Origin: a bacterium | Lineage (GTDB): Bacteria > SZUA-182 > DTGQ01 > JBLIRR01 | Assembly: GCA_049472395.1 (NCBI GenBank) | Contig: JBLIRR010000012.1 | Coordinates: forward strand, 55,777 to 119,776 | Direction: 5' to 3' | Length of the DNA stretch: 64,000 bases | Part shown: one piece after another, positions 1,299-53,027 of the stretch | Layout: each line of letters opens with the position of its first letter | Position numbering within the stretch: position 1 is the stretch's first letter | Position numbers and translations under genes: made by a program | The notes under the pieces: model-generated | The model's input: only the letters and a program-made list of their open reading frames with translations | The model's database searches: none | What the model was told of the DNA's origin: nothing

Positions 1299-2723
1299 TT
1301 AGTGATGTCCGATTAAACGTTTTAACCTTTTATTGAGAGCAGATTGCGTTATACCTAAAAGGGATGCTGCTATTGATTGATTGTTTTTTGCTCTCTTTAA
1401 AGCTTCTTTAATGGCCAATTCTGAAATCTGACGCAGGGTTGGGAATTTATCTTTAATAATAAAGATCGGTTCATTTATTTTTCTGGCAGTATAATGTCCT
1501 GAGAGGTGAGAATCATTTATATGGCCAAGTTTTTCTCTAAAGCAGTTTAATGAGAGCGTGCCTCTGATATGCCTGCTGACGGCTTCAAATACCATTGCCT
1601 TTAATTCACGTATATTTCCTGGAAAATGATATGTTTCAAGTAGTGTGTATAATTGAGGGGGAATATTAGTGACCTTCACCCCGATCTCTTGAGATGCTTG
1701 ATGAATAAAATGATGTATGAGCACTGGTAAATCCTCAAAGCGCTCCCTGAGGGGAGGAACTTTAATTTCATAAACCCGAAGGCGATAATAAAGATCACTG
1801 CGAAATTTTTTCTGAACAACCAAATCACTTAAATTTTTATTCGTCGCGGTAATAATACGTGCATTGGCCCGTTCGACGAAATCTGAGCCGAGAGGATAAT
1901 ATTCGTGTGTTTCAAGAAGACGCAACAGCTTTATTTGTGAGGAAGCACTGAGGTCTCCAATCTCATCAAGAAAAAGAGTGCCGAATGCTGCTTTTTTGAT
2001 GAGCCCCTCACGGACAGTATCTGCACTTGTAAATGCACCTTTTTTATGTCCAAAGAGGGTATCGGCAAATACACTATCATCTAAACCCGCTGCATTAACC
2101 ACGATATAGTTGCCTTTCCTTCCGCTCAAGGAGTGAATACATTGTGCAATAAGTTCTTTTCCCGTGCCTGATTCACCCGAAATTTGAATGGGAAGGTTTG
2201 TTTTTGATATGGACTCAACGTAGAGAAATAATTTTTTCATTGAATCACTTGTAGTAATGATATTGGAGAATATTTTAGGATGTTTAAGTATATGTGAAAA
2301 AAAGTATTGTTTTAAATTAAGGTTTTCTTCTCTCAATTCCCTGATCTTCAGCGCATTTGTTACTGCAGTGATAAGTTTTTGATTCTCAATTGATTTGACT
2401 AAATAATCAGATGCCCCCATCTTCATGCATCGTATGGCTGTTTCAACTTCATTAAGACCAGTTATAATAATAATTGAGGTATCTGGAAAATCCTCTTTTA
2501 TTATGGGAAGTAATTTCTCTCCTGAAATATACGGCATAGTTAAGTCAAGCAGGACTAAGCCAACCTTCTTCTCATTTATAATTTCAATTACCTGTGTGCT
2601 TTCATTGCAGCATAATATATTGTTCATTCCTGCTGCTTTGAGCACTCGGCTAAGGCTTACTAAAATCTGGGTTTCATCATCTACAATTAATATAGGATTT
2701 AAGGGATATAATGTGTCATTCAT
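1299..2723 (-). CDS. Sigma-54-dependent response regulator (NtrC family)
   Basis: N-terminal receiver domain (ILIVDDE...), AAA+ sigma-54 activator motifs GESGTGKE and GAFTSA, C-terminal HTH; 8-nt overlap with upstream kinase gene. Confidence 0.9.
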   Translation of the reverse strand: MNDTLYPLNPILIVDDETQILVSLSRVLKAAGMNNILCCNESTQVIEIINEKKVGLVLLDLTMPYISGEKLLPIIKEDFPDTSIIIITGLNEVETAIRCMKMGASDYLVKSIENQKLITAVTNALKIRELREENLNLKQYFFSHILKHPKIFSNIITTSDSMKKLFLYVESISKTNLPIQISGESGTGKELIAQCIHSLSGRKGNYIVVNAAGLDDSVFADTLFGHKKGAFTSADTVREGLIKKAAFGTLFLDEIGDLSASSQIKLLRLLETHEYYPLGSDFVERANARIITATNKNLSDLVVQKKFRSDLYYRLRVYEIKVPPLRERFEDLPVLIHHFIHQASQEIGVKVTNIPPQLYTLLETYHFPGNIRELKAMVFEAVSRHIRGTLSLNCFREKLGHINDSHLSGHYTARKINEPIFIIKDKFPTLRQISELAIKEALKRAKNNQSIAASLLGITQSALNKRLKRLIGHH

Positions 2724-5418
2724 AATATTCTTTCCTCGCTGATAAAATAATTTGAGCTGTTGTTCCCTGACCCTCTTGCGAACTCAGATTCAGGCGTCCA
2801 TTATGTTCATTAATAATAGTCTGAGATACTGAAAGTCCAAGACCTGTCCCGCCCTGTTCCCTTTTTGTGGTAAAGAAGGGATCCTTAATTTTCTTAAGAT
2901 TGCGGTGAGGAATACCCGTTCCTTCATCTTTTACTTCAATGGTGACAGTCCCTTTATCTTTCTGTTGATAGGTTAAAATAAAAATACCCTGTGTTCTATT
3001 TGTTAAGGCATGACAGGCATTTTGGATTAAATTTATGACTACCTGCTCCAAGCGCTGGCTATTTCCTTGAATCATGGGCAGATTTTCATCAAGAAGAAAG
3101 GTAAAATTCCTGGTTGATTTTTTAAGCATAGTTGATGTAAGAGAAATGGCAGATTGAACTATTTGATTAATATTTAATAGGGTAAACTGTCTATGAGGAT
3201 CTTTTCTGGCAAAATTTTTTAATTCTTTCACGATTCTGTCAATCCTTATAGCGCCATCAGCGATATCGTTTAAGCAATTGAGAATGTCATCCCGAATATG
3301 TGAGTAGTGGAGCCCTCCAATAATAAAATCACCATTCTCTCCATAATAATTATTGAGAATGGGGAGCGCCCCCTCAAGAATCCTTCTCAAAAATGGAGTG
3401 TTTGACATAATAAACTGATTTGGATTATTTATCTCATGGGCCACTCCTGTTACCAGTGTCCCCAATGAGGCAAGCTTATCAGCCTGGATAAGCTGTTCTT
3501 GTTTTTCACGTGCTTCTTTTTCCATCTTTTTACGTTCAGTTATGTCTTCGATCATTCCCATTAAATATTTTGGATTGCCCGATTGCTCTCGAACAAGGCT
3601 CACAGTGAGGTTTGCCCAAATTATAGAGCCATTTTTATGATAATACCGTTTTTCTATGGAATATGTTTTTAGAGTATCGTGAAGCAATTTTTCATGATGC
3701 TCCAGATCTATTGCCAAATCTTCAGGATGTGTAATCTGCTCAAAGGTTAATTCTAATAATTCATTCTGAGTATAGCCGACCATTGTGCAAAAACGCTGGT
3801 TGACTTTAAGAAAACGCCCATCAGGCCTCGCATATACCATACCAACGGCAGCCTGTTCAAATATCTTCCGGAATCGCTCTTCACTTTCTCTCAAGGCCTT
3901 CTCAGTCCGTTTACGCATCGTGATATCTTGCACTGTTCCATATAAGCGTCGTGGATTTTCCTCCTTATCTCTCTCTACTATTCCTTGAGAAAACAATATT
4001 CTTTCTTCCCCATGATTTGTGATAATTCGATACTCAATCTCGTAGGAATTACCATTTTTCAGTGTATCGTGGATAGCCATATTGAGATGAATAAAATCGT
4101 CAGGATACACCCTATCCCTATATATATCATAAGTAATATCAACTGCTTTTGGTTCGTAGCCGAATAATCTATATACTTCATCTGACCATGTTATTGTGCC
4201 CTCAGTTATGTCCCACTCCCAGTCGCCGATGTGGCCGATCTCTTGAGCCTTCGCTAATCTATCGCGATTTCCTTGCAGTTTCTTTTCAACCTCTTTACGT
4301 TCGGCGATTTCCTTTTTTAATTGCTCATTGCTCATTTTGAGCTCAACTGTGCGCTCGTTTACCATATGCTCAAGATGATCCCGGTGTTTTATAAGTTCTT
4401 CTTCCGCCTGTTTTCGTTCAATAATCTCACCTATTCGTTTTGCGATTATTTTAATGAGATCCTTATCTGAACCTCGATCTTTTTCACGATAACTTATTTC
4501 CAATGATCCTTTTACATTACCATGAACTTTAATAGGCTCTGAGTGCGTGCATTCGCTCTGTTGGGGACTGTGGGTAGTATATTCATAATCTTCAAAGATT
4601 ATTTTAGGGTTGGTCATGTTCGAATGTTTCAATGAAGAGGAAATAATCTTTACTGCTTCCTGAATTATTTTCTCTAAGCTCATATAGTGCTCATCAATTC
4701 TTGAAATCCCATAGAGACAGTTGAGTTCTTTCAGCCGCTTATTAAGAATGAGCATTAGCAATCTGTTTTCCTTCTCTACCTTTTTCCGCTTAGTAATATC
4801 CTTAATATCTTCAACAATCCCCACAAGCTCACCCGTGAGACTCTTGAAGGGCGTTGCTGTGACAATACAATGAATTTTGATCCCATTTTGCCCCTCTTTT
4901 TCAACATCGCATTCTATATACCTCTCGCCTCGTAGAATTTTATTTAATGGACAATCAAGGGTTTGACACAGCGAGCCATGAAATGTCTCAAAACACTTTT
5001 TCCCTATTGCATCCTCTCTATTTACACCTAACATCTTTGACAGAGTGTCATTAATTTTAAGCACAGTGAAATCTTTATTAATTAAGCGCATGCCATCGGC
5101 CGCTGTGTTAAATATCTGATCGAGCTCAATTTGAGCGAATTTGATAACATCTTTTTCCTGCTTTAGTCTGTTCATTATATATTGCGCGCTCGCTCCGAAT
5201 AGTATGATTAATACTATGATTATTACACGCATCCATATTTCATGGAGAGGAGGAGTCATTAGATGGTTGAGGAAATTATGTCCCGGAAATATATATGCAT
5301 GAATTTCGGATCCAAGTACCCAATAAAGTGCGCCTGTAACGATGCCGGCAAGAAGGAATGGCCCCCCTGCTTTATTCGCTACTTCTCTCATTCTTACTTT
5401 TCTTATATTGTGTATCAC
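2716..5418 (-). CDS. Membrane-anchored multi-PAS sensor histidine kinase
   Basis: N-terminal TM helices, several PAS-like segments, coiled-coil, HisKA H-box (GVAHEINNP) and HATPase_c G-boxes (GTGIPH, GGTGLGLS). Confidence 0.9.
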   Translation of the reverse strand: MIHNIRKVRMREVANKAGGPFLLAGIVTGALYWVLGSEIHAYIFPGHNFLNHLMTPPLHEIWMRVIIIVLIILFGASAQYIMNRLKQEKDVIKFAQIELDQIFNTAADGMRLINKDFTVLKINDTLSKMLGVNREDAIGKKCFETFHGSLCQTLDCPLNKILRGERYIECDVEKEGQNGIKIHCIVTATPFKSLTGELVGIVEDIKDITKRKKVEKENRLLMLILNKRLKELNCLYGISRIDEHYMSLEKIIQEAVKIISSSLKHSNMTNPKIIFEDYEYTTHSPQQSECTHSEPIKVHGNVKGSLEISYREKDRGSDKDLIKIIAKRIGEIIERKQAEEELIKHRDHLEHMVNERTVELKMSNEQLKKEIAERKEVEKKLQGNRDRLAKAQEIGHIGDWEWDITEGTITWSDEVYRLFGYEPKAVDITYDIYRDRVYPDDFIHLNMAIHDTLKNGNSYEIEYRIITNHGEERILFSQGIVERDKEENPRRLYGTVQDITMRKRTEKALRESEERFRKIFEQAAVGMVYARPDGRFLKVNQRFCTMVGYTQNELLELTFEQITHPEDLAIDLEHHEKLLHDTLKTYSIEKRYYHKNGSIIWANLTVSLVREQSGNPKYLMGMIEDITERKKMEKEAREKQEQLIQADKLASLGTLVTGVAHEINNPNQFIMSNTPFLRRILEGALPILNNYYGENGDFIIGGLHYSHIRDDILNCLNDIADGAIRIDRIVKELKNFARKDPHRQFTLLNINQIVQSAISLTSTMLKKSTRNFTFLLDENLPMIQGNSQRLEQVVINLIQNACHALTNRTQGIFILTYQQKDKGTVTIEVKDEGTGIPHRNLKKIKDPFFTTKREQGGTGLGLSVSQTIINEHNGRLNLSSQEGQGTTAQIILSARKEYYE

Positions 5419-5487
5419 TCGCGTACTCTAATAAAATAAATATAGTTATAATTCTTTTCGGAATATGAAAAATAATTCATTATTTAT

Positions 5488-5517
5488 AAAAAAAAGGGCG
5501 GTCTGTGAAGACCGCCC
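5488..5517 (-). terminator. Rho-independent terminator downstream of MCP gene
   Basis: GC-rich hairpin GGGCGGTC/GACCGCCC with 6-nt loop (5496-5517); on the minus strand it is followed by a run of 8 U (A-run 5488-5495). Confidence 0.7.
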
Positions 5518-5570
5518 TTTCTGCTGTGAGAAATCTCACCTAAGAAATCGATGTGCGATATCTCACGGTA

Positions 5571-7898
5571 TCAATATTTTCCGAATTCATTATCATCAAG
5601 AGCTATGATCTTTTTGGGATCAACCTTGACAACTCCTATATTATGCATATTCTCGCCACCTGTGCCATGGAGCTGGCCGGTGCTATGAGCAGGGAGAGAC
5701 CTGACTTTATCAGATGGCCTCCTCGTAGGTGCTTGAGCATACATTTGCCGCTGGTGTTGATAATTCTTCAGGGTAAAGTGCTGGAGCAATCCTTTTAATT
5801 GATTGGCCTGGCTTGATAATTCCTCAGCAGCAGATGCCCCCTCTTCAGCATTGGCAGTCGCCTGCTGAGTTACTTGGTCTATCTGACTAAGCCCCTGATT
5901 AACCTGTGCTATCCCCTGAGCCTGATCATTTGATGCTGCGGCAATTTCGGCGACAAGATCCGAGGCCTTTGTGACACCTGTTAAGATTTCATTCAGAGCA
6001 TCGGCAGTTTTATTCGCAATGTCTGTGCCATTTTCTGTTTTCTTTACAGAGCCTTCGATAAGCTCTGCGGTCTCTTTGGCTGCCTTGGCACTTCGTCCGG
6101 CCAAATTCCTGACTTCTTCCGCCACAACTGCAAAACCTTTTCCGTGTTTTCCTGCCCGTGCAGCTTCTACCGCTGCATTGAGAGCGAGTAGATTTGTCTG
6201 GAACGCTATCTCATCAATGACCTTGATGATTTTCGAGATATTCTTACCTGATTCATTTATTTCACCCATGGCACTCACCATATCCTGCATCTGTGAATTT
6301 CCTCTTTCTGCTGCTGCTCGTGCTTCATTGGCGAGCTGATTTGCCTGATTAGCATTTTCCGCGTTTTGTTTTGTTTGAGATCCCATCTCATTCATAGAGC
6401 TTGTGATCTGCTCAAGGGAGGATGCTTGCTCTGTAGCTCCTTGTGAAACCGACTGACTTGAGTCGGAAACCTGCTGTGAACCTGATGCGATTTGTTCCAC
6501 TGATAAGCTGATCTGTCCCATAATATTGTTAAGATCACTATTCATTTTTATTAAGGCTGTTCCTATAACGTCCTTCTCATCCTTTCGTTTGGCATCAAAG
6601 GATAAATCCCCTTCGGCAAGCTTTTGTAAAGACCCGACAAATTCATATTGAAGATAATCTGCAAAGTGATCCATGGCCATGGCCATTTGGCCTATTTCAT
6701 CCTTATCTTCTATATTGAGGCGCATATCAAGATGGCCAGTGCTCATCTCCTTAATCATGTCAACAGTTTTATTGAGCGGGTTTACAATGCTGCGGGTAAT
6801 AATTAAGGCAGCAAAGATCCCCGCAATGATGGCAAGAAGAGAGATAAGAGGCACCACCACTAAAGTCTTATCAATCTTTTGCCCCATCTGCGTTGTTGCA
6901 GAACTCGCCATTTCAGTGAGCCTGTCCCTGATCCTTCCCAGAACCGCAAGCGTCTCCTCAGCGGCAGTCTCTGTTTCTTCCTGCATAATATGCATCGCCT
7001 CTTCAATTGATGCTTCGGCCTCTTTTTGGGCAATCATTGACTTATGATACCTCTCCCCTGCTTCTTTAAATGAATTGAGGCTGTTTTGTATACTGCTTAG
7101 AGTAGGGTGAAGCCCTGATATTCCTTCGATAAGGCTTGCCCAGGAGGAAATCCCCTCTTCAACTGAGCGAAGCTGCTCTTTATACGTAGCCCATTGTTCA
7201 TTAGTCGGAGTAATAGCAAGCTCTGCTGCTTCCGAGCGCAGTATGAGAAATGGAGCAATAACGCCTTCATTCATCTCCATATCAATTTCTCCCCATTTCA
7301 CTATAGCCGCTATATTTCCTCCCTGTTCAGCCTTCTCTTTTGCAGGATCAATAACATTTTCCATTCCCCTGTCAAGTGTTTCAGTGAATTTTTGAGCTAT
7401 TCTATCCCATTCTTCCCGAACCTCCTCTTGAATTTCCTGGGCTCTCATATAGTCTTCCCACTTGTAAAGGTTTTTAATTTTTATAGCTGATGCATGCAGT
7501 CGGTGATGGGGCTCCTCAACCTCTCGGAGAAGGCGGGCTATTTCAGGATCTTCTGCGGCGATCTCCCGGGCATCCTCTCCATAGAGCCACTGGCCGAAGC
7601 CGCACTTACGGTCATCTGTTTCAACATCAAGGCTGGTGACCTTATCATCTGCAAACATATTATTGACTCTACCCATCCACCGGACATGATCTATGATTCT
7701 CTGAAGAATTTCCGCTTGCAGGTGATCATGTTCCACAACTTCATGAGCCAAATGGTCAACAGAGCGGAAGTTGACATAACACATACCCCCGATAAGGGTC
7801 AGAAGAACAAGTATCACCCCGAATCCACATCCAAGTTTTGCAGAAAGTCTCATATTTTTAAACATGGCTGTAAGCTCCTTTCTTTGTTGTGGTATCAA
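5571..7898 (-). CDS. Methyl-accepting chemotaxis protein with CZB-like motif in the N-terminal sensor region
   Basis: Two TM segments flanking a ~300-aa domain, HAMP, MCP signalling domain ([19 protein letters not shown]); HxxxW...CGFGQW...HHRLH spacing matches the chemoreceptor zinc-binding signature; true start may be the internal MFKNMRL. Confidence 0.9.
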
Positions 7899-8424
7899 TC
7901 ATTGTGTCACGGTCTTTCTCAATTTGCATAAGCTCTTCTTCAAAGAGTAGTTTATTAACGTCAAGGAGTATTTTAACCTCTTCCCCCACCTTGCCCATGC
8001 CTTTTATGTAACTGCTCTTCACCCCTTTTCCCGTCCTTGGGGGAGGTTCTATATGAGATTCCGGGATATCCATAACCTCGCTCACTGTATCAACCACTAA
8101 GCCTATGGCTATATCATTTATATTGACCACCATGATACATGTCCGATCATCATATTCTCGAGACTGAAGATTAAAGCGGGTGCGCACATCCATAACCGGG
8201 ATCACCTTTCCCCGTAAATTGATCACCCCCTTCATAAAATCAGGCATATCCGGTACCTCGGTAATCTTTTGAATACCGATGATTTCCGTGACATATCGTA
8301 TATCAATCCCATAATCTTCCTTTCCCACGCAAAAGGTGAGAAACTTATCTTTTTGAGCATCCTCATCCTCATCCTCATCATACATGTCCTCATCAAACAG
8401 CTTATTATTTTGATTATCAGTCAT
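7858..8424 (-). CDS. cheW: Chemotaxis coupling protein CheW
   Basis: CheW-like domain ([43 protein letters not shown]) preceded by an acidic N-terminal tail; overlaps the MCP gene start. Confidence 0.85.
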
Positions 8425-11969: not shown

Positions 11970-14054
11970 TTACCTTGTCCTTACTTTATATCCAACTTCG
12001 ATAATGCCACCAGCGCAGTCCCCTGGAATCTCAGCCTTGGAAAATCCTTTCTCCACTTCTTGAATATTTGCTTTACCGAGAAGATTACGTTCATCCTTAA
12101 AGATATTAAATTTCATGCCGGGGAAAATTCCTTTTTCCGTTCCCGTATCTGTATGGAACGTTTTTCCATTTTTTGCGATGATAGTCCCTGTACATAAAGG
12201 AAAAGAGTCCCGAAATTTCATTGAAAGACCGGAAATAATTAATGAAAGGTCATCGATGGTCTCAGAGGGGCTAAATACATCGTGATAGAGACGAATAAGA
12301 CCAGTATCAACTTCGATGAACCTTGCGAGTATCTCAATTCCATCCTCTCTTGTCGTGACGTATCCATATATTATTCCTTCTGCAGTTGTTATTTTGCCTA
12401 TCTGGTGCGCTTCAAGGCCCTGGATACTTTTCTCCATTATTATTTTGGGTAGTTTTTCCCGTTCGACCAAGGTAAAACGCCCCTGTTCTGAAAAAGATTC
12501 AATGGTCTTATTATAGATATAAGGAATAGTGGATTCATCATTCCTCATGCCATCACTCTCAAAAGGGAGTATAGCCAGTATCATCTTTTCTTCACTTTTA
12601 AAGATTTTTTCTCGCGGAACTTTCTGTATATAATGATGCGCTTCATCTTGATTTCCTAATCTATCTTCTACCAAAAGATTGAGCACTGTCATTTTTTCTT
12701 TAAGATGTATCATCTTATTAATATAATAAATATTATACCTTAACAAAATTGTGCGAACAAGTTCTATATATTTTTGAGGATTCTTGATTTCAGGAGTACG
12801 TGTTCGAAGTTTATCCATATTATTTTCCACAATCGTTTCTATTTCCGATATATGAAATAGTGTCCTATCATTGAGCTTTATCTGTTGTATTCCATTATTA
12901 GTCCGAATAATGCCCTCTAAAAAGATGTCGTGGTAATAGGTGGCAAAATCTTCTTTTGGTGGGTAGGTGATCTCAATGGAGATATCTCTTTTTGAGGGTA
13001 TCATCGCCAAAGTTGATGGCTCTCCATCATGAGAGGGCATATTCTGAGCAATTTTAACCCATTTTCCCGGTGGCGGCGTAAGAGGTATTTCCCCTTGAGT
13101 GATATTGCCGGCGTTATCTTTTGTCCAAAATGTAGCCGTCTTTAAGCCCTTAGTAAGAGGAATTGAGTGTTCAATAAGACACACCTGGTCAAGACCTATC
13201 GTGGGTACTTCTTTCTGATTCAGTGTAAAGGATTGAATACCGGACAGGTCATACACTATTGCGGTAAGAAGCACTTGATCTATTTTACCGCTTTTGTCAG
13301 GGTAGATTATATCTGCGATTACTATGGGTCCTTGTTGATCAAGGAAAATACGAATAGCCTTTTCTGCTTCTTTGCCGACTAGATCTTTGGTGGTGATGCT
13401 CACAGTATTCCAGCCCGCCTCAAGATCGACTGATACATGAAAGGGGAAGATAGGTTCGGCTAATTCAATAAACAGGGGATCGTGGTTTACTGAAACAGCA
13501 GCTATATAGTGATCATCATGTGCCATTCCGGTAACGCTGAAAGTAGTTTTATTCGTTCGGTATAGTTCTTTTTGCATTTCCAAATCGATCCCGGGAGGTT
13601 GTATATCCAATCCCGATGCAATGAGAGATGCCTTGCGAGTTTGATTAAGATAATATTTGGCCCTTGCCGAGCCACTGTGGCTCATAGATAATTCCAGTTC
13701 TTCTAATGCGTCCTCGATTAGTCCAAGATGGAAATAGCATATACCCAGTTCGCGATGAGGGAAATATCCTTCGCGGAAATGCATTCCATATGCCCTGGCA
13801 TATGGTTGATCTTGGTAACGAAGTTCAATAGCATCCTTGAATTCTGAAATCGCATATTCCCAACATCCTCCCCGCATACAGCTTATGCCCCGTCTATAGC
13901 ATGCATCCCAGGTTACCACATGAATCTTGTCTTGAGTAATACAATATTTCTTACCATCTTTGATACAGATTCTCGCCTTTTGCATAGAACATGCATAGAT
14001 AAGAATGATCATCCCTAGAAGCACAACATTTTTTATTTTGTCGTGTTTATACAT
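11970..14054 (-). CDS. TPR-containing lipoprotein with TolB-N-like and C-terminal beta module; partner of the cyclase-CHAT protein
   Basis: Lipobox-type signal peptide (IYACS); TPR-like helices near the N-terminus; LAILPFESDG segment and a C-terminal module resembling the C-terminus of the upstream gene product; 9-bp gap to the upstream gene. Confidence 0.7.
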   Translation of the reverse strand: MYKHDKIKNVVLLGMIILIYACSMQKARICIKDGKKYCITQDKIHVVTWDACYRRGISCMRGGCWEYAISEFKDAIELRYQDQPYARAYGMHFREGYFPHRELGICYFHLGLIEDALEELELSMSHSGSARAKYYLNQTRKASLIASGLDIQPPGIDLEMQKELYRTNKTTFSVTGMAHDDHYIAAVSVNHDPLFIELAEPIFPFHVSVDLEAGWNTVSITTKDLVGKEAEKAIRIFLDQQGPIVIADIIYPDKSGKIDQVLLTAIVYDLSGIQSFTLNQKEVPTIGLDQVCLIEHSIPLTKGLKTATFWTKDNAGNITQGEIPLTPPPGKWVKIAQNMPSHDGEPSTLAMIPSKRDISIEITYPPKEDFATYYHDIFLEGIIRTNNGIQQIKLNDRTLFHISEIETIVENNMDKLRTRTPEIKNPQKYIELVRTILLRYNIYYINKMIHLKEKMTVLNLLVEDRLGNQDEAHHYIQKVPREKIFKSEEKMILAILPFESDGMRNDESTIPYIYNKTIESFSEQGRFTLVEREKLPKIIMEKSIQGLEAHQIGKITTAEGIIYGYVTTREDGIEILARFIEVDTGLIRLYHDVFSPSETIDDLSLIISGLSMKFRDSFPLCTGTIIAKNGKTFHTDTGTEKGIFPGMKFNIFKDERNLLGKANIQEVEKGFSKAEIPGDCAGGIIEVGYKVRTR

Positions 14055-14063
14055 GAGGATTCC

Positions 14064-16877
14064 CTAGAGCTTTTTTTCAGTCCCTTTTATAGGATCTCCA
14101 GATTCAAATGGTACGTTTTGCTCAAGGATTTCTGCTACAGCCGTGCTTTCGTTTACCTTTTTTATGAGGATATACCCTTTTGTGGTTCTTTCTTCTGGTG
14201 TATCTAATTCCGGTGTATTTAAGACCGTGAAGACCTGATCCTGCCTCACTCCCATATTATGTCCAAGATTAATCTTGATCTCATCTCCTTCCAAAGACAT
14301 TATTCTACCTTTGAGAGGGTAATGGGTTGCGAGATTCTCGATGGTTTTACGGACCAATTCGGAGGCAATAGTTTCTAAGCTCTCTGTCTCAGGAAAGAAT
14401 GGTTGAGAGAATGCAGTGAGTATTTCAGTACTGTGTGTTTCTACAAGGCGAAGGCTTATTTCCGATTGTAATCCTTCACGTGTTTTATATGAGACGGGCT
14501 CAGGGAAAAGAATGATGCGGGCAGAGAGCAGTGTATAGGCATCCTGTAATGATTTTGATGAAAGTGTGGGAATCCCAATCTGAAGCTCCTGCAATATTCC
14601 TGCTATCCTTTTTCGCTCAAGTACGGACAAGCCAATTGAGGTGGTCTGAGTAAATACCTCAATCATCCTATTGAAAAGCTTTTCATAATGACCCTTCAAG
14701 GATACAACAGCAGGATCATCCAGTTCCTGCCAGTTCGGTGCAATGATACAAATGGAGATAGGCTGTGATGTCCATGTATCTGACTGGCTCTTGGTTGCGA
14801 AAAAACCTTTATTGTTAAATTGTTGGGTAAGCTGATCTTGATAGGAAGAAAGAATTTGAATAGTCTGTGTTATTTTTTGAAAATCAGGGTCTATTCCGGC
14901 TTCTTGAATGTAAGAGGGGAAAATGTTCGGAAGATTTCCATGAGGATCTTTATATGATTTTTTAAGACCCATATAGGCGTTTGTAATAAGAAGCATAATG
15001 ATAAGAGAGAGGCTTGCTCCCGTGAGCACTTGTTTCCATGACCAGGTTTTTTTATTGCTCTCTTTTATGTTTAAATCTCTATGAGCTGTCTCTGACCTCA
15101 CCATGCAATATTTTTTCTCATCCGGCTCTGGCTCCTTGATTTGTTCCATATAATTCGATGTGGGATCTCCGTACAGGACATAGCTTGCCCAGATAATCGC
15201 CTCTTCTTCATATTGATTAATTAATGAGAGCCTAGCTTTTCTTAAAGCTTCTCCTATGCTCATGCCAGAGAGAATGTTTTCATAGAATTCTAATGCAAAA
15301 TAACTTCCTTGGTTATCAGGAATTTCCCAGAATGTCCCAATGTAATGTTTTACTCCTGCTAAAAGAAACGCATTGGCCAATCCGAAGATTTCCTCCTGAA
15401 ATTGTTCTTTTAAGGTCCATTCATTAGTGCGTGCTGATTGACATGCATTCGAGAAAATAAGGGCGGGCATCTTTGAGGTGGCTATTGTGCTGATATCCCG
15501 TGCTGTGATGTTTTTACCTCCGGTTTTCCATCCACTCTCCTCGGGGCTTGTGTGATTAAACTCGGCATGACCTGCAAAATGGACAATATCAAATTGTTCA
15601 AATTTTTTTTTCAGATATTCACAGGTCAGGTTTTTTGAGCGTAAGGTAATATTTATGAAATTCTTTTCTCTCAGCATGAAGTCACGAATCCGAGAGCCTT
15701 CTGCATATGCATTCTTCAGATCCCCTTCCAGGTCTGCTATGATCAGCATATTTAATGGCTTTGACAATACCCGTGATTTACTTCCATTCACTGTCTGTTT
15801 GGTTTTTACTAATCTCCCCATATTGAAACGTTGACAAAGGAATTGATGGCCATCAAAAATAAGCTCCCAAGGGATCTGGACGAGTTGGTCATCGATATGT
15901 AAGGTTAAGTAATGCGCCCTTGTTTCGTCAAGCTTTTTCTTAAGGGAAGGGGAAAACAGTTTTTCATAAAAGGCCTGCCCAGTCTCTCTTAGTTTTAGGA
16001 GAAGCTCACGCTTGAAAATACCCAGGCGAAGCGCTTTATTAAAGGTATCGACCATCTCATTGCATTCTTTATTAATCCACTCCATGGAGATTGGGATCTG
16101 TTCATAATGACGAATAGTGCTTTCTTCTCCGGCCATGTGCTCATTAGAGCTAATTTTTAAATGATCCCTCTCACAAAGCACTTCGAGCCGAAAGACCATT
16201 ATGGATTTTTTCATTCTCTCTTCATCGGGTTCTTCACTAGCGCGCAGTTTCGGCTTTCCCCAGATGACCTGGAAAAGCTTTAAAGATTGAGCCCTACCTC
16301 TTGGAAGAGAGTATTTATCATACATACAGGTAATGTCCTCAGAGGATTTGACTTTTTCATAGACCTTCTTTGAGATAATTATCTGATAAGCCTTAGCGTG
16401 AGATTGGATACGTGATGCTTGACTTACCGCATTACCATAAATATCTGACTCCTTCATATAAACCTCATCCCAACTTATGCCGATCCTCACATGTATTTTA
16501 GAAATTTCTCCTATGATGGTGTTATAGGCATATAATCTTTTCTGAATTGCTATTGAGGCTTTTACTGCCGAGAGAGGATCTGGGAAATAGGCCATAAGCT
16601 CATCTCCCAGGGTTTTATATATCGTCCCCTTATTGCCTGCAATGATAGGCATGACGATCTGCCTGAGTTTTTGCACAAGACTTTTCCCGCACACATCACT
16701 GCGGGTATCAATAAAGTTTGGATAGTCATAAATGTTGGCAAAAAGAATAGCGAGTTTCTTCTTGTATTGTCCATTTAAAATTTCATCAATAAATTCTTTC
16801 CCCACTAATATTTCTTCAATCATGCCAGGGAATTTTCCAAAGAATACTTCATGATCTCTTGGCTTTAATTCCTCCAT
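14064..16877 (-). CDS. Membrane-anchored class III nucleotidyl cyclase domain / CHAT protease domain fusion protein
   Basis: N-terminal cyclase homology motifs (LAILFANIYD, YKTLGDELMAYF, RIGISWDEV, YGNAVSQASRIQS); CHAT motifs (QIPWELI, HFAGHA, FSNACQSA, AGVKHYIGTFWEIPD); one TM helix; ~300-aa C-terminal extracytoplasmic region. Confidence 0.8.
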   Translation of the reverse strand: MEELKPRDHEVFFGKFPGMIEEILVGKEFIDEILNGQYKKKLAILFANIYDYPNFIDTRSDVCGKSLVQKLRQIVMPIIAGNKGTIYKTLGDELMAYFPDPLSAVKASIAIQKRLYAYNTIIGEISKIHVRIGISWDEVYMKESDIYGNAVSQASRIQSHAKAYQIIISKKVYEKVKSSEDITCMYDKYSLPRGRAQSLKLFQVIWGKPKLRASEEPDEERMKKSIMVFRLEVLCERDHLKISSNEHMAGEESTIRHYEQIPISMEWINKECNEMVDTFNKALRLGIFKRELLLKLRETGQAFYEKLFSPSLKKKLDETRAHYLTLHIDDQLVQIPWELIFDGHQFLCQRFNMGRLVKTKQTVNGSKSRVLSKPLNMLIIADLEGDLKNAYAEGSRIRDFMLREKNFINITLRSKNLTCEYLKKKFEQFDIVHFAGHAEFNHTSPEESGWKTGGKNITARDISTIATSKMPALIFSNACQSARTNEWTLKEQFQEEIFGLANAFLLAGVKHYIGTFWEIPDNQGSYFALEFYENILSGMSIGEALRKARLSLINQYEEEAIIWASYVLYGDPTSNYMEQIKEPEPDEKKYCMVRSETAHRDLNIKESNKKTWSWKQVLTGASLSLIIMLLITNAYMGLKKSYKDPHGNLPNIFPSYIQEAGIDPDFQKITQTIQILSSYQDQLTQQFNNKGFFATKSQSDTWTSQPISICIIAPNWQELDDPAVVSLKGHYEKLFNRMIEVFTQTTSIGLSVLERKRIAGILQELQIGIPTLSSKSLQDAYTLLSARIILFPEPVSYKTREGLQSEISLRLVETHSTEILTAFSQPFFPETESLETIASELVRKTIENLATHYPLKGRIMSLEGDEIKINLGHNMGVRQDQVFTVLNTPELDTPEERTTKGYILIKKVNESTAVAEILEQNVPFESGDPIKGTEKKL

Positions 16878-41500: not shown

Positions 41501-44500
41501 ATGAAAAAGTTTAAAAGAGCATATTTTACAAGTTTTATAATTATCTCTTTATTATTGTGTGGATTAATATCCCGTGTAAATAATGTCCGAGCTGACGATA
41601 ATGTGTTTAATTATGATATTGGGGATTATCAGTGGGCACCCGGCTTCGGGTGGGGTGGATGGTCCACACGGGGGAGTTCTCCCAATGATGCGTGGGGCTC
41701 TTCAACGTTCTCTTCTTTTGATTTTTCACCAGGAAATAAGTTCGGGGGCTTTTTTACTAATATCTTAAGTGAACTTGTCTGTCCTTATGTGCCGGGTGTA
41801 ACGCTCGGCCCTTGGGTTACTTGCCCTCCGACTCCATCTCCCCCTCCTTGGCCCTCACCCGGCGAAGAGAATGAGGTATTTAGCAAAGAATATGAAATAT
41901 CGAAAGGTAAATATGGATACGGATGGGACTATTGTTGGGGTGGAAATTGTGGCACAACAGTTGATTCTTCAATGAGTGCAACAGATACTTTTTCTGTTCC
42001 CGAAAAAGGTATTTATTATGTAAGGATTTACAATGGCGGAGAAGCAAGTTATAAAGGTGACCGTGTATCCTCCGGTGAGATAAAAATCAATAATAAGAAG
42101 GTAATAAAAAGTAATGATTTTAACAAGAACGAGACATTCATTGAAGTTCAATTAGAGTTAAAAAAGGGGATAAATACGCTCTATGTAAAGATAAATGGAG
42201 CCCCGGGTGCTTTTATAGTGGTGAAGATAGTCAAGATAGTGGAACCTGTGCCTCCCCCTGTCATTGAATTCGAGGACGCAAAACTTGAGGCTGCGGTTCG
42301 CGCTGCTCTTGGAATTGGAAAGAATGAGCCTCTCACAGAGGACCTTCTTCTTGGTCTCACTGATTTATATGTGGATTCACTGGGTATTAAAAAACTTGGA
42401 GGGATAGAGTATTGCACAAATCTTGAATTTCTTAGCGCCTCGGATAATAAAATAAGTGACGTGGGTCCTCTCGCATTCCTTCATAATCTCATATGGCTCC
42501 ATCTTGCGCGAAACAATATCTCCAATGTAAGCGCATTGGAATATCTTACTGAGCTTGAGTGGCTCAATGTATCCAATAATACAATAACCAGCTTATTTCC
42601 CCTTATAGATTGTGATAATCTAGAGTGGCTCAATCTTTCCAATAATCCTATCAATCCTTATGATTTAAGTGATTTATCTCATATAGATCATTTATATTTT
42701 ACTAATGATCCGGCTGTCTATGATAGAACCACAGGAATGATGGCGACTGATTCGCGTGATGATAATTTTACGTTTACCTTTGAAGATCTCCTTGCGCATC
42801 CGGCAGATAGCGCTACCTTGACGCTCACTATCGAAGGAGATGTCGATGAATCGCGAGAGTATTTGAGTGTGTATTCGGGAAATCGCGATTTGGGTGATAT
42901 TTTTAAGAGCGGAAATCTAAAAGAATGTGATGGATTTAATGAGGCACAGATAGAAATTACTCCAGATGATCTGGAGTCCTTAATGCATAAGGGGAAAATT
43001 ACCTTTACTTTAATACCATCGAATTATGTTGATTTCAGTGAGTGTCATCTAAGAGCTTATCTGCGATTGGAATATGAAAGACAAGCGGTTGTTAAGCAGT
43101 ATGTTTTTGGTGATGAAACCGGAACCGCAACCTCCGATGGTGATCCTCTATCCTTTACCTATAAAGATATTCCTTTAGATCCACTCCATAATGTCAATTT
43201 AATTGTCAATGTCAATGGCGATGTGGGAAATCCCAGTGAGTATATTACGGTTAAGGCAGGCACTACGAAACTCGGAGATGTATATAAAACTGGGGGTCTT
43301 TTAGACTGCAGTGGATTTTATGAAGAAGTCATTCAAATAACCAAGGAACAGGTACAATCATTAACCACCGATGGAAAGATTACCTTTACCCTCGTGCCAT
43401 CGAGCGCTGTCGGGTATAGTGCGTGCAATCTGAGCGCTTATCTGAAACTTGAGTATGTATCGTATGTTTTTGGCCAGGAAACTGATACTATACTATCGGA
43501 CGGAGGACTATCCTTTACGTATAGAGATATTCCGGAAGACCCGGTTCGTGGCTGTATTTTAGAATTGAATGTTGAGGGTGATTTGGATAGTAGCAATGAA
43601 TATATCACTGTGAAAGCAGGAAGTACAATAATCGGACAGGTATATAAAGACGGAGATCCTAAGGAATGTAATGGTTTTAATGAAGAGCAGCTTGAAATAA
43701 GCGCAAGTAAGTTACAATCATTAACCAGTGGCGGAGAGATTACCTTTACATTAGTGCCATCGAGCGCTGTCGGATTTGGCACCTGTGATCTAAGTGTATA
43801 TGCAAGATTGGCATATGAAAGTGAGCCGCCCGTTACTCCCTTTCTGTTTGGTAAGCAAACTCCTACGGTAAATTCTGATGAGGGAGGAGTGTCCTTTACC
43901 TATAGTGGAATTCCTGTAGATCCTCTTCATGCGGTGAATCTTATTGTCAAAGCAAAGGGAGATTTGGGAGGTACCAATGAATATATTACTGTGAAAGCAG
44001 GCACGATCGTGCTTGGGAATTTATATAATACTCAAGGCCAGACAGACTGCGGTGAGCTCAAAGAAGAACAGATAACCATAAGCAAGGATGAATTGAAGTC
44101 CCTCACCACTTATGGTAAGATTACTTTTACATTGGTTCCCTCCAGTGCGGTGAGCTATGGTTCATGTGATCTGAGTGTAAATGTTAAGCTTGACTATGTA
44201 TCCTATGCTTTTGGGGAAGCAAGTGCTACGGTGTCATCTGATGGTGCATTATTTTTTACATTCAGAGAAATTCCGGCCAATCCTCAGCATCCTGTCAAAG
44301 TGGTTGTCAAAGCAAAGGGGGATTTGGGTGCCACGAATGAATACCTCACGATAAAAGCGGGTAGTACTGAACTTGGAAATTTATATACAACCTCCGACCA
44401 GACAGACTGTGGTGATTTTAAAGAAGTATCCATAACCTTGAGTAAGGATAAGGTGAAGTCCCTTGCGATTGATAATAAGATAACTTTTACATTGGTTCCA

Positions 44501-46432
44501 TCGAGCGCTGTCGGTTATGGTTCTTGTGATTTAAGTGCCAATTTAACACTCGTATATGAAAGTGAGCCACCCGTTCCTACCTATATTATTGGCGAAACAA
44601 CAGCGACAGTAAATTCCGATGGTGATGTAATATCTTTTACTTACGAGGAAATTCCTTCAAATCCGCTCCGTAATCTTACTATCATTGTCAAAGCAAAGGG
44701 GGATTTGGGCGACACGAATGAGTATATCACCTTAAAAGCAGGCGCCACTATACTTGCGGATTTGTATAGAGCACCTGATCTAGTAGATTGTGGCGAATTT
44801 GAAGAAGAGAAGATAATCATAAGTAAGAGTATGGTGCAATCCTTAACAGTGAATGGGCAGATTACCTTTTCATTAGTGCCATCTGGTGCGGTGAGTTATG
44901 GCACATGTGATCTAAGTGCGAATCTCACACTGGTATATGTAGGTGAACCCTCTATAGTGCCCGGTGTGTTTGGCAAGAAAACAGCCACGGCGACATCCGA
45001 CCAAGAACTCTCCTTTGCCTATAATGATGTTCCTGCGAATCCGCTTGAGAATTGTATCTTATCTGTTTTTTTCAAAGGGGATGTAGATCATTCCAGTGAA
45101 TTTATCACTGTCAAAGCGGGAAGTACTGTGCTCGGGTATTTATATAAAACAGGGAACCCAACGAGCTGTGATGTGTTTAATGAGGGGCAAATATTCATAA
45201 GTAAAAGTGCATTAAAGAACATGACAACCAACGGGGAAATAACCTTTACCTTAATCCCCTCTGCAGAGGTTAATATTTGCGATTCAAGCGCCTATATAAA
45301 ACTTGCATATGAAAGCCAACCCCCCGATACTACCTCTGTGTTTGGCAAGAAGACAGCAACGGTGACATCCGATGGTGTAATATCTTTTACCTATAGAGAG
45401 GTTCCTGCCCATCCACTCGATAATTGTATTTTATCCGTTTATTTCAAAGGGGATATAGATCAACCCAGTGAATATATCACTGTCACAGCAGGGGGGACTG
45501 AGCTTGAGGATTTGTATGCAACGGGAAATCCAACGAGTTGTGATGTGTTTAATGAAGGGCAAATATTCATAAGCAAAAGTGCATTAAAGAACATGACAAC
45601 CGACGGGGAAATAACCTTTACCTTAATTCCCTCTGAAGAAGTTAATTATTGTGATTCAAGCGCCTATATAAAACTTACATATGAAAATTACCTTCCTCCT
45701 GATTCATGTGTATTTGGACAAAAAACCCCCATCATGATCTTTGAGAATGAACTCTCCTTTATTTATAAGGGAATTCCTTCATCCCCGCATGATGACGTTA
45801 TCTTAATTCTTAATGCAGATGGGGATTTAGGCAGTACCAATGAGTTTATTACCGTGAAAGCAGGTGATACCGTGCTTGGCGATATATATAGAACCGCAGG
45901 TCTGACAGATTGCAGTGGACTCAAAGAGGATATTATAACAATTGGGAAGGATGAACTGGCTTCGCTCACAACAAATGGTGAAATAACATTTACATTAATT
46001 CCTTCCGGCGCGGTGAGTTATGTCTCGTGTGATCTGAGGATTTCTGCAGAACTCACATATGTATCCTATATATTTGGTGAGCAGACACCGACGGAGACCT
46101 CGGAGGGTTCAATATCTTTTAACTACAGAGGGATTCCTTCAGATTTGCTTGATGATGTCATTTTAATTGTCAACGCAGATGGAGATTTGGGTAAAAGCTA
46201 TGAGTTTATTACCGTGAAAGTAGGGAGTATAGAGCTTGGAGATTTATATAATACGGAGACTCTCACAGACTGCAGTGGATTTCATGAAGGATTTATAAAT
46301 ATTACCAAGGATGAATTGAAATCTTTAGCCACCGAAGATGGGAAGATTACATTTACATTAGTCCCATCGATTGCTGTTGATTTCAGTTCTTGTCCCCTAA
46401 GGGCCAATGTAATCCTCGACTATCAATCATAG
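41501..46432 (+). CDS. Giant secreted repeat protein: signal peptide, LRR region, about ten tandem ~120-aa Cys-containing repeats
   Basis: Signal peptide; Gly/Trp-rich N-terminal region; leucine-rich repeats (LxxLxLxxNxIS pattern); tandem units each with ITFTLVPS, EYITVKAG and two conserved Cys; GGGGGGAG RBS. Confidence 0.85.
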   Translation: MKKFKRAYFTSFIIISLLLCGLISRVNNVRADDNVFNYDIGDYQWAPGFGWGGWSTRGSSPNDAWGSSTFSSFDFSPGNKFGGFFTNILSELVCPYVPGVTLGPWVTCPPTPSPPPWPSPGEENEVFSKEYEISKGKYGYGWDYCWGGNCGTTVDSSMSATDTFSVPEKGIYYVRIYNGGEASYKGDRVSSGEIKINNKKVIKSNDFNKNETFIEVQLELKKGINTLYVKINGAPGAFIVVKIVKIVEPVPPPVIEFEDAKLEAAVRAALGIGKNEPLTEDLLLGLTDLYVDSLGIKKLGGIEYCTNLEFLSASDNKISDVGPLAFLHNLIWLHLARNNISNVSALEYLTELEWLNVSNNTITSLFPLIDCDNLEWLNLSNNPINPYDLSDLSHIDHLYFTNDPAVYDRTTGMMATDSRDDNFTFTFEDLLAHPADSATLTLTIEGDVDESREYLSVYSGNRDLGDIFKSGNLKECDGFNEAQIEITPDDLESLMHKGKITFTLIPSNYVDFSECHLRAYLRLEYERQAVVKQYVFGDETGTATSDGDPLSFTYKDIPLDPLHNVNLIVNVNGDVGNPSEYITVKAGTTKLGDVYKTGGLLDCSGFYEEVIQITKEQVQSLTTDGKITFTLVPSSAVGYSACNLSAYLKLEYVSYVFGQETDTILSDGGLSFTYRDIPEDPVRGCILELNVEGDLDSSNEYITVKAGSTIIGQVYKDGDPKECNGFNEEQLEISASKLQSLTSGGEITFTLVPSSAVGFGTCDLSVYARLAYESEPPVTPFLFGKQTPTVNSDEGGVSFTYSGIPVDPLHAVNLIVKAKGDLGGTNEYITVKAGTIVLGNLYNTQGQTDCGELKEEQITISKDELKSLTTYGKITFTLVPSSAVSYGSCDLSVNVKLDYVSYAFGEASATVSSDGALFFTFREIPANPQHPVKVVVKAKGDLGATNEYLTIKAGSTELGNLYTTSDQTDCGDFKEVSITLSKDKVKSLAIDNKITFTLVPSSAVGYGSCDLSANLTLVYESEPPVPTYIIGETTATVNSDGDVISFTYEEIPSNPLRNLTIIVKAKGDLGDTNEYITLKAGATILADLYRAPDLVDCGEFEEEKIIISKSMVQSLTVNGQITFSLVPSGAVSYGTCDLSANLTLVYVGEPSIVPGVFGKKTATATSDQELSFAYNDVPANPLENCILSVFFKGDVDHSSEFITVKAGSTVLGYLYKTGNPTSCDVFNEGQIFISKSALKNMTTNGEITFTLIPSAEVNICDSSAYIKLAYESQPPDTTSVFGKKTATVTSDGVISFTYREVPAHPLDNCILSVYFKGDIDQPSEYITVTAGGTELEDLYATGNPTSCDVFNEGQIFISKSALKNMTTDGEITFTLIPSEEVNYCDSSAYIKLTYENYLPPDSCVFGQKTPIMIFENELSFIYKGIPSSPHDDVILILNADGDLGSTNEFITVKAGDTVLGDIYRTAGLTDCSGLKEDIITIGKDELASLTTNGEITFTLIPSGAVSYVSCDLRISAELTYVSYIFGEQTPTETSEGSISFNYRGIPSDLLDDVILIVNADGDLGKSYEFITVKVGSIELGDLYNTETLTDCSGFHEGFINITKDELKSLATEDGKITFTLVPSIAVDFSSCPLRANVILDYQS
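42760..46432 (+). repeat. Tandem array of about ten diverged ~360-bp coding repeats
   Basis: Recurring protein motifs imply a ~360-bp DNA period; two adjacent units are ~95% identical over ~120 nt (near 45150 and 45510). Confidence 0.75.
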
Positions 46433-47594: not shown

Positions 47595-48400
47595 AATTCA
47601 GGCCTTGTATTGATTTACATAATGGTAAGGTAAAACAGATTATCGGCAGTACACTTGGTGCTGATAGTGAGAAATTGGTCGTTAATTATGAGTCACCCAA
47701 ACCTCCCTCCTATTTTGCCAATCTTTATAAACAAGATAAATTAACAGGCGGTCATGTGATAATGCTTGGAAGTGGCAATGAAAAAGCAGCACAGGAGGCC
47801 TTACACGCCTACCATGGTTATTTGCAAATAGGGGGAGGGATAAATTCTGACAATGCATTATATTGGTTGAAACAGGGAGCATGCGCTGTCATTATAACGT
47901 CATATGTCTTTAAAGGGGGGAGGATTAATAGGGAAAATTTACATAAAATAGTAAATATAACCGGCAGAGAACATCTTGTACTTGATCTAAGCTGCAGGCG
48001 AGTGAATGAAAAATATTTTGTGGCAACCGATAAATGGCAAAATATTTCACATGAAGAGATATCCTCGGCTTTACTTGATTATCTCGCTGAATCTTGTGCT
48101 GAGTTTTTGATACATGCAGCTGACAGAGAAGGAAAATGTGAGGGGGTTGAAATTCCTCTTATAGAAAAGTTAGGAAAGTGGGCGCCTATTCCTGTCACAT
48201 ATGCAGGGGGGGTGCGCTCACTAGAGGACCTTGATACCATATACCAAAAAGGCGGGGGAAGGCTTGATGTGACAGTGGGCAGTGCTCTTGATATCTTTGG
48301 CGGCAATGTACCCTACAAAGAGGTGGTAGAATGGCATAAAAAGCACAGTGCAATCGGCGTTGGGGGGGAGGATATGTATGAAAAAAATTTGGGAGATTAA
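47591..48400 (+). CDS. HisA/His6-family TIM-barrel isomerase-like protein
   Basis: N-terminal CIDLHNGKVKQIIG, IGGGINSD, LIHAADREG and VTYAGG motifs typical of ProFAR isomerases, especially the His6 type. Confidence 0.65.
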   Translation: MKFRPCIDLHNGKVKQIIGSTLGADSEKLVVNYESPKPPSYFANLYKQDKLTGGHVIMLGSGNEKAAQEALHAYHGYLQIGGGINSDNALYWLKQGACAVIITSYVFKGGRINRENLHKIVNITGREHLVLDLSCRRVNEKYFVATDKWQNISHEEISSALLDYLAESCAEFLIHAADREGKCEGVEIPLIEKLGKWAPIPVTYAGGVRSLEDLDTIYQKGGGRLDVTVGSALDIFGGNVPYKEVVEWHKKHSAIGVGGEDMYEKNLGD

Positions 48401-50054
48401 GGGAAAATATTCAAAAAACTCGTCAGTGTTCAATGAATTATTAAAGATTCGAGGATTTGATTCAGATGAAAAAATAGACAGATTTTTACATAGTTCTGCA
48501 GGCCATTTGTATTCTCCCTTTTTGTTGAAAGATATTTCGAAAGCTATCGACAGATTATTTTTTGCCCAAAAGAACAATGAATTAGTGATGCTTTATGGCG
48601 ATTATGATGTTGATGGAGTTACCTCTATAGTGCTTTTGGCAAAGCTGCTTCGCTATTTGGAAATCCCCTTTTTTTATTTTCATCCCGATAGATTAACGGA
48701 TGGTTATGGATTTCATAGTCGGGGTGTGAGTATTGCACTATCTCGCGGAGCCAAACTTATTATTACGGCAGATTGTGGTATTTCCGATCATAAAACAGTA
48801 GACTATGCTCAAAGGGTTGGTATTGATGTTATTATTACCGATCATCACTGTCCTGGGGATTCAATTCCTGATGCTTTCGCGGTTATAAATCCGCAAAGGC
48901 GAGATTGTTCATACCCAAACAAGGATCTTGCAGGCGTCGGAGTGGTGTTGAAATTTGTTCAGGGTGTCTTTGAGAAGATGCTGATAGCTCCTTCTCTGGA
49001 GGAATATTTTGAAATAGCCGCTATTGGGACGGTGGCTGATGTTGTCCCCATCATTAATGAGAATAGAACCATCACCAAATTAGGATTGGAAATAATTGGA
49101 TCGCAGCCTATTAATCCAGGCATTAATGCCTTAATAGAAATCGCCGGAATAAAGTCACGAAAGATTAATTGCGGCCATGTAGGATTTCAGATAGGTCCTC
49201 GCTTAAACGCAGCCGGCAGGATTTCCCGGGCAGAACTTGCAACTGAATGTCTCCTTGCTCAAAAGAAAGAGCGGGTCCAGGAACTGGCTTATTATTTGAA
49301 CACAGAGAATATGAAGCGTAAAAAAATTTGTGAGGAAGTGCTGCAGCAAGCACTGGAAAAAATTGAGAGGGATCCACATCTAAGAGAGGGCAAGATTATT
49401 GTATTGTCGGGAGAAGGATGGCATCGGGGAGTTATCGGGATTGTGGCCTCCAAGATCCAATCTATTTATTATAAGCCAATTGTTATAATATCCATTGAAA
49501 AAAATGTAGGACATGGTTCTGCCAGAAGTATCCCTGCTTTTAATATTTTTAATGCACTCCAGAATTTAGATTCGTGGCTCCTGAATTTTGGGGGGCACAG
49601 CCAGGCAGCAGGCATAACAATTGAGACCGATAATATTGAACAATTCAGAGAGAGCATTAACACACTCGCGAATACATCCCTGAGTGAAGATGATATGAAA
49701 GAAAGAGTGGTTGTGGATATGGAAATCGATTGTGGTGCATTTACAGTGGGTACTATTAAGCAGATTGAGCTTATGCAGCCCCATTCAATCGGTAATCCGG
49801 CACCTGTGTTTGCTTCCTTTGGGTGCAAATTGAAATCTTCCCCGCGACGTATAGGGCAACAGGGGGATCATCTGAAATTTCAGGTTTCACACCACGGAAA
49901 GAGCTTTGAATGTGTTTATTGGCAGGCAGGGAATAATCATATAGAAACAAATAAAGGGTACCTCGATATTGCATACACCCCATCTCTCAATGAATGGAAG
50001 GGATACCAAAAGATTCAGTTTGAAATTAAAGATTGCCGGCTATCTAAAAGCTAG
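48378..50054 (+). CDS. recJ: Single-stranded-DNA-specific exonuclease RecJ
   Basis: DHH motifs (LYGDYDVDGVTS, IITDHH) and DHHA1 (GGHSQAAG); start at ATG 48378 with GGGGGAGGA RBS, overlapping the upstream gene's 3' end. Confidence 0.85.
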   Translation: MKKIWEIKGKYSKNSSVFNELLKIRGFDSDEKIDRFLHSSAGHLYSPFLLKDISKAIDRLFFAQKNNELVMLYGDYDVDGVTSIVLLAKLLRYLEIPFFYFHPDRLTDGYGFHSRGVSIALSRGAKLIITADCGISDHKTVDYAQRVGIDVIITDHHCPGDSIPDAFAVINPQRRDCSYPNKDLAGVGVVLKFVQGVFEKMLIAPSLEEYFEIAAIGTVADVVPIINENRTITKLGLEIIGSQPINPGINALIEIAGIKSRKINCGHVGFQIGPRLNAAGRISRAELATECLLAQKKERVQELAYYLNTENMKRKKICEEVLQQALEKIERDPHLREGKIIVLSGEGWHRGVIGIVASKIQSIYYKPIVIISIEKNVGHGSARSIPAFNIFNALQNLDSWLLNFGGHSQAAGITIETDNIEQFRESINTLANTSLSEDDMKERVVVDMEIDCGAFTVGTIKQIELMQPHSIGNPAPVFASFGCKLKSSPRRIGQQGDHLKFQVSHHGKSFECVYWQAGNNHIETNKGYLDIAYTPSLNEWKGYQKIQFEIKDCRLSKS

Positions 50055-52991: not shown

Positions 52992-53027
52992 TATTTTGTT
53001 CTATTTCCTCATTACACAAAGCTTTTC

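Follow-up and report, generated by a model that had tools for sequence, protein, structure and literature searches.

Can a chemoreceptor zinc-binding (CZB) domain serve as the sensor of a transmembrane receptor from outside the cytoplasm? To our knowledge, every CZB domain that has been characterised is cytoplasmic, and the question is raised here by a chemoreceptor (MCP) gene in the window, by which we mean the whole 64-kb stretch of DNA analysed. A first-pass annotation had noted a CZB-like signature in this MCP, between the predicted membrane spans TM1 and TM2, and had suggested that it could sense zinc or oxidants.

The receptor and its membrane topology

The MCP gene occupies positions 5571..7865 on the minus strand, stop codon included, and encodes a protein of 764 aa, as judged from the open reading frame and its Pfam domains. 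The enclosing ORF runs over 5571..7898 (minus strand), and the likely start is the ATG at 7865, which has an AAGGAG 9 nt upstream and with which the starts of the homologues align. Immediately upstream lies cheW (7858..8424, minus strand; PF01584 CheW, E 2.5e-41). Over 8 nt (7858-7865; ATGTTTAA), the end of cheW, with its stop codon at 7858-7860, overlaps the beginning of mcp, whose ATG is at 7863-7865. This stop/start overlap, together with the AAGGAG 9 nt before the ATG, suggests that the two genes are translationally coupled.

The domains of the receptor, all encoded on the minus strand, follow one another in the order TM1 (aa ~11-33; 7767..7835), an all-helical extracytoplasmic sensor region (aa 34-334; 6864..7766), TM2 (aa ~335-358; 6792..6863), HAMP (aa 356-406; 6648..6800; PF00672, E 8e-13) and the MCP signalling domain (best Pfam stretch aa 510-666; 5868..6338; PF00015, E 4.7e-53). 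The Tar/Tsr-type four-helix-bundle sensor family, 4HB_MCP_1, reached 17.2 bits against a gathering score of 27 in the Pfam scan, and this sub-threshold match is limited to aa 4-62, mostly TM1. A scan of the MCP against NCBIfam returned generic MCP matches only, all of them sub-threshold. We considered a lipoprotein signal at the LGC of aa 11-13 and rejected it by eye: the residues that precede the Cys do not look like a lipobox, and the Cys stands before the hydrophobic core. At the other end, the protein finishes with ...DDNEFGKY (5574-5591, minus strand) and homologues finish with EDFRDF, KDFTEF, DEFEDF, FKDF or DFEDY; in sequence, these C-termini resemble the aromatic pentapeptide that tethers CheR/CheB in some chemoreceptors.

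The topology was derived from a simple hydropathy scan combined with charge bias, domain order and a structural model. The scan (Kyte-Doolittle, 19-residue windows above 1.6) identified two hydrophobic segments, aa ~11-33 and ~335-358, and these flank the CZB motif, which puts it between TM1 and TM2 as originally proposed. The N-terminal ten residues carry a net charge of +3, the 15 residues past TM1 one of -3, and the sensor region (aa 34-334) one of -26. Pfam puts the start of HAMP where TM2 ends, and the MCP signalling domain after it. In an AlphaFold model that included the membrane spans (model 2), TM1 continues without a break into the first CZB helix (aa 7-72), and a second unbroken helix (aa 250-376) comprises the last helix of the sensor, TM2 and the first helix of HAMP. 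Taken together, the two hydrophobic segments, the charge bias, the HAMP and signalling domains after TM2 and the helix continuity predicted by model 2 place aa 34-334 outside the cytoplasm, so that the topology check named in the annotation does not refute its reading. We use "extracytoplasmic" as a safer term than "periplasmic", since the host is not necessarily a diderm.

The CZB domain and its place among known CZBs

The signature spans aa 60-124 (regular-expression match, 7494..7688, minus strand) and reads H60-V-R-W63, 24 residues, C88-G-F-G-Q-W93, 26 residues, H120-H-R-L-H124. The order of the elements, both spacings and the CGFGQW and HHRLH elements had been described correctly, but the opening element is H-x2-W, not H-x3-W as stated, and the range first given, 7500-7760, covers most of the motif but clips the H124 codon (7494-7496). 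The original CZB paper (Draper et al. 2011) reportedly defined the motif as Hxx[WFYL]x21-28Cx[LFMVI]Gx[WFLVI]x18-27HxxxH. PMC8262984 agrees with this definition. Across all six reading frames of the window, the regular expression matched only once, and one of 200,000 shuffles of the MCP protein matched it. The Pfam CZB profile (PF13682), which had been named as a check, matched almost over its full length (profile positions 1-63 of 64; envelope aa 60-130; 7476..7688, minus strand), with a score of 54.2 bits (gathering score 29.4) and an E of 1.8e-14.

The conservation of the motif was examined in two alignments, one of the query with 6-7 homologues (A1) and one of 24 sequences of the closer subfamily (A2). 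H60, W63, C88, G91, W93, H120 and H124 are invariant in A1, and each is present in 21 to 24 of the 24 A2 sequences. The predicted zinc ligands, all encoded on the minus strand, are H60 on the TM1-continuous helix (7686..7688; 21/24 in A2), C88 of CGFGQW, which would also be the redox-active thiolate (7602..7604; 22/24), and, as third and fourth ligands, the two outer histidines of H120-H-R-L-H124 (7494..7508; H120 in 24/24 and H124 in 22/24). By direct count, the sensor region (aa 34-334) has no Cys other than C88, which therefore lacks a partner there for an intramolecular disulfide. In the model, the region folds as a four-helix bundle like that of the CZB of DgcZ (PDB 3T9O). Judged by homology, ligand conservation and predicted fold, the MCP carries a genuine CZB domain.

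A His/Glu-rich stretch (aa 36-48; window ~7722-7760, minus strand) follows directly after TM1 on the same helix as H60 and is shared with the closest relatives, P0011 and P0017. From its composition, it could be an extra metal-binding site.

How unusual is this arrangement? Perkins et al. (2021, mBio; PMC8262984) surveyed 10,140 CZB sequences and describe 384 putative periplasmic CZBs (~3.9%) in the N-terminal regions of membrane-bound chemoreceptors. Calling an N-terminal extracytoplasmic CZB atypical was therefore right in that this is a minority arrangement, but the arrangement had already been documented. The same paper states that position 2 of the Cys motif in the periplasmic subgroup is poorly conserved or Ala, not Arg. 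The query resembles this subgroup in both respects, having its CZB N-terminal, between the membrane spans of an MCP and on the extracytoplasmic side, and Gly at position 2 (CGFGQW). Among 300 motif instances in the relatives described below, position 2 is A in 122 and G in 110 (together 232), and R in 8. The query differs from the subgroup, which is documented by a sequence census alone, by the addition of a conserved distal module of ~160 aa; the passages of PMC8262984 that were searched mention neither such a module nor tandem CZB arrays.

The characterised CZBs differ from it as well. In DgcZ, TlpD and McpA, the 3His/1Cys site binds one Zn2+, and when the Cys is oxidised or zinc is lost, the bundle changes its conformation and the output is switched (PMC6715182, PMC12422006, PMC8262984). 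In Helicobacter pylori TlpD and Salmonella McpA, as in the query, the CZB controls a chemoreceptor signalling domain, and there the Cys-Zn site senses oxidants or redox state (PMC6715182, PMC12422006; the latter summarises the link between redox and Zn2+ for McpA). Unlike the query, however, TlpD and McpA are soluble receptors with a C-terminal, cytoplasmic CZB, whereas that of the query is N-terminal, outside the membrane and connected to TM2 and HAMP. Escherichia coli DgcZ (YdeH) is a cytoplasmic protein with an N-terminal CZB joined to a GGDEF cyclase; its CZB (3T9O) shares only 15% identity with the query sensor in a structural alignment, and it was not retrieved by PDB sequence and profile searches with the sensor as query.

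Relatives, tandem units and the distal module

We searched 1.84 billion cluster representatives exhaustively with HMMER, using aa 1-360 of the MCP as query, and obtained 1815 relatives at E<=1e-3, of which 1115 reached E<=1e-10 and 207 reached E<=1e-30. When the best 157 of these 1815 were inspected, 127 had at least two membrane spans with one or more CZB motifs between the first two. These 127 proteins carry one CZB motif (27 proteins), two (80), three (19) or five (one). Ten relatives were checked by Pfam, and all ten were MCPs. A histidine kinase or GGDEF output had been considered for the relatives without a match to the MCP regular expression; it was discarded, since all ten tested turned out to be MCPs.

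Most of the relatives examined have two or three tandem CZB units between TM1 and TM2 (P0002, P0013 and P0020 are examples), and P0014 has five. The repeat period is ~92 aa, and in nine of the ten relatives checked Pfam finds 2, 3 or 5 CZB stretches.

The relatives that could be named come from MAGs of Deltaproteobacteria, Desulfobulbaceae and Desulfamplus. We found no record of the exact MCP protein, and a scan of a genome collection yielded only distant relatives, the sole N-terminal match being that of L004, a Desulfamplus sp. MAG (37% identity over aa 4-377). In L004, this sensor relative lies at 4989-6182 in an ORF of 397 aa, too short for an MCP signalling domain; the receptor may have been truncated or frameshifted, or the sensor may work with some other partner. 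Our literature search returned no experiment on an extracytoplasmic CZB, metal-binding and response data included, and no description of tandem extracytoplasmic CZB arrays or of a CZB within a sensor resembling the helical bimodular (HBM) domains. The receptor is thus another member of a rare architecture, catalogued by sequence census and uncharacterised, and its novelty is limited. What our analysis adds is the probable bimodular, HBM-like organisation of the sensor, with a distal module that is conserved but unannotated, and the extent of the family, tandem-CZB members included.

The CZB makes up only the first third of the sensor region. It is followed by a conserved helical module (aa ~136-295; 6981..7460, minus strand), delimited by conservation and by the helices of the model (H101-147, H150-183, H187-210 and the N-terminal half of H215-299), for which the Pfam and NCBIfam scans returned no covering family. 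Its signature is ME.vIDPAK..A......KW.EIDM.MNE...PFL ... W242, and E169, D173, P174, K176, A179, W191, D195, N199, E200 and W242 are each present in at least 21 of the 24 A2 sequences. The module occurs in 26 of the best 157 of the 1815 relatives, each time directly after a CZB, in a set biased by the CZB-containing query; a word-indexed search with a profile of the module alone (A3) returned a single 144-aa fragment. In single-module relatives such as P0003, the CZB passes straight into the TM2-leading helix, aligned to aa ~257-334 of the query, and for this reason aa ~136-295 can be regarded as an insertion in the query. In a few relatives the CZB adjacent to the module has no ligands, as in the second unit of P0140, which suggests that the CZB scaffold can persist without zinc.

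The helices of the modelled sensor are 36, 17, 27+47, 34, 24 and 85 residues long, and these lengths fit two long helices that run through two stacked bundles, with two short helices for each bundle. Since the first helix is an extension of TM1 and the last runs on into TM2, the CZB bundle would be membrane-proximal and the distal module membrane-distal, with the zinc site near their junction. Among known structures, the modelled fold is closest overall to McpS-LBD (PDB 2YFA) and to the sensor domain of TorS (3I9W, 3O1H). These HBM domains share no sequence similarity with the query (7-12% identity), and Pfam HBM gave no match to it at E<=1. Compared with the HBM of McpS, the helix order of the query appears to be circularly permuted, in that the short pair of the proximal module stands at the beginning of the order and not at its end, to judge from helix lengths and connectivity in the model. 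A further difference from the HBM domains is that in the query one module is predicted to be a metal site.

Signalling, alternative readings and gene context

We consider it probable, though well short of assured, that the protein is a transmembrane chemoreceptor with a two-module helical extracytoplasmic sensor, whose membrane-proximal CZB bundle acts as a zinc-occupancy or Cys-thiolate switch through TM2 and HAMP. Within this scheme, we infer that zinc is bound, what the stimulus is, in which direction the response goes and which of the modules lies nearest the membrane. H60, C88, H120 and H124 would hold one Zn2+ some 30-40 Å above the membrane, by helix-length arithmetic, and would thereby link three helices: the one that extends from TM1 (through H60), the short CGFGQW helix (through C88, at its start) and the third (through H120 and H124). 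The input could be zinc gained or lost as the availability of external Zn2+ shifts, oxidation of the C88 thiolate, much as the Cys-Zn redox switch works in TlpD and DgcZ with their cytoplasmic CZBs, or a redox potential that acts by way of zinc speciation. Direct sensing of Zn2+ seems unlikely unless the affinity has been retuned in this location, because cytoplasmic CZBs bind zinc with sub-femtomolar affinity, according to PMC8262984. A change in zinc occupancy or the oxidation of C88 would repack the CZB bundle, and the signal would then be passed along the long final helix, of which TM2 is a continuation, to HAMP and from there to the signalling domain, which would control CheA through CheW. 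Such a switch acting through TM2 would be analogous to ligand-induced signalling in four-helix-bundle receptors, while the distal module might tune the response or supply a second input. By analogy with the characterised CZBs, that of the query would sense zinc or oxidants.

A bolder version of this scheme assigns a signal to each module. The sensor would then represent an undescribed class of bimodular extracytoplasmic ligand-binding domain (LBD), in which the CZB zinc/redox site forms the proximal bundle of a circularly permuted HBM-like fold and the distal bundle binds a second signal through E169, D173, K176, W191, D195, N199, E200 and W242. We put this forward tentatively, as a possibility that is on balance doubtful.

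The same conserved residues lend themselves to a reading in which zinc is only structural, the CZB being a rigid scaffold like the membrane-proximal module of HBM domains, and a small molecule or ion binds as chemoeffector to the distal patch E169, D173, K176, W191, D195, N199, E200 and W242. The strong conservation of a distal module that belongs to no known family speaks for it, as do the nearness of the fold to McpS-LBD and TorS, whose corresponding modules bind ligands or partner proteins, and the relatives that keep the distal module beside a CZB unit devoid of ligands. However, 131 of the best 157 of the 1815 relatives have CZB units alone between TM1 and TM2, with no distal module, and because of this the CZB by itself must suffice as sensor in most of them; the strong conservation of the zinc ligands likewise argues against a purely structural role. 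We regard this reading as rather unlikely. Less plausible still is that the receptor directly senses other thiophilic metals (Cd, Cu, Ni or Co) or sulfide, and so serves metal or sulfide taxis of a host in an anoxic habitat. The extracytoplasmic placement would expose the 3His/1Cys site to the environment, the extra His/Glu-rich stretch (aa 36-48) lies on the same helix, and the deltaproteobacterial, Desulfobulbaceae and Desulfamplus origin of the named relatives is compatible with this idea. Yet all characterised CZBs bind zinc, as PMC8262984 states, and we judge the proposal improbable.

Could the motif be a chance match, or the domain be cytoplasmic through a misjudged topology, given that the spans came from a simple hydropathy scan? 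The Pfam match (E 1.8e-14), the single hit in 200,000 shuffles and the conservation of the ligands argue against chance. As for the topology, the HAMP and MCP signalling domains directly after TM2 must be cytoplasmic, and the order TM1-CZB-TM2 recurs in 127 of the best 157 of the 1815 relatives. Both versions are extremely improbable and in effect already refuted, and the zinc or thiolate switch acting through TM2 and HAMP is the reading that we retain.

The gene neighbourhood offers no clue to the function. Directly downstream of the MCP gene, after a gap of 153 nt, overlapping genes encode a 900-aa multi-PAS histidine kinase and a sigma-54-dependent response regulator (1299-5418, minus strand). 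We saw no zinc or oxidative-stress genes in the window, nor around the relatives P0005 and P0010, whose neighbourhoods are not conserved; this counts against the zinc or thiolate switch. The rest of the window is rich in signalling genes, among them PAS kinases (50958-55592), a sigma-54 activator (59163-60692) and a cNMP-binding protein (62463-63932). A 937-aa protein (14064-16877, minus strand) combines an adenylate/guanylate cyclase domain (aa 38-184) with a CHAT protease domain (aa 298-571), an unusual signalling/protease fusion, and the adjacent gene (11970-14054) encodes a TPR protein. The only Pfam matches of a 1643-aa ORF (41501-46432, plus strand) are leucine-rich repeats near aa 306-362. 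The GC content of the window is ~39-40%, and the best matches of its RecJ (48348-50054, plus strand) are at 77% (an unclassified MAG), 64% and 53%, with Clostridia, Omnitrophica and Acidobacteria at ~40-45%. By sequence, the window seems to come from a poorly sampled lineage.

The finding is in essence the correct annotation of a rare but documented architecture. Outside the membrane, a Cys-Zn site would meet the environment directly, without the zinc buffer of the cytoplasm, which would be a different sensing regime, and an extracytoplasmic CZB could thus report the availability of external zinc or the presence of oxidants. Residues 36-334 of the MCP make a defined and well-modelled construct on which such sensing can be tested. 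The distal module is an unannotated domain that may perhaps deserve a family definition of its own, and the family comprises at least 127 cluster representatives with CZB motifs between membrane spans, many of them in tandem. If the bimodular, two-signal reading were true, a single receptor would integrate the metal or redox state with a chemical cue, and the relatives would extend the principle by stacking two to five extracytoplasmic CZB units.
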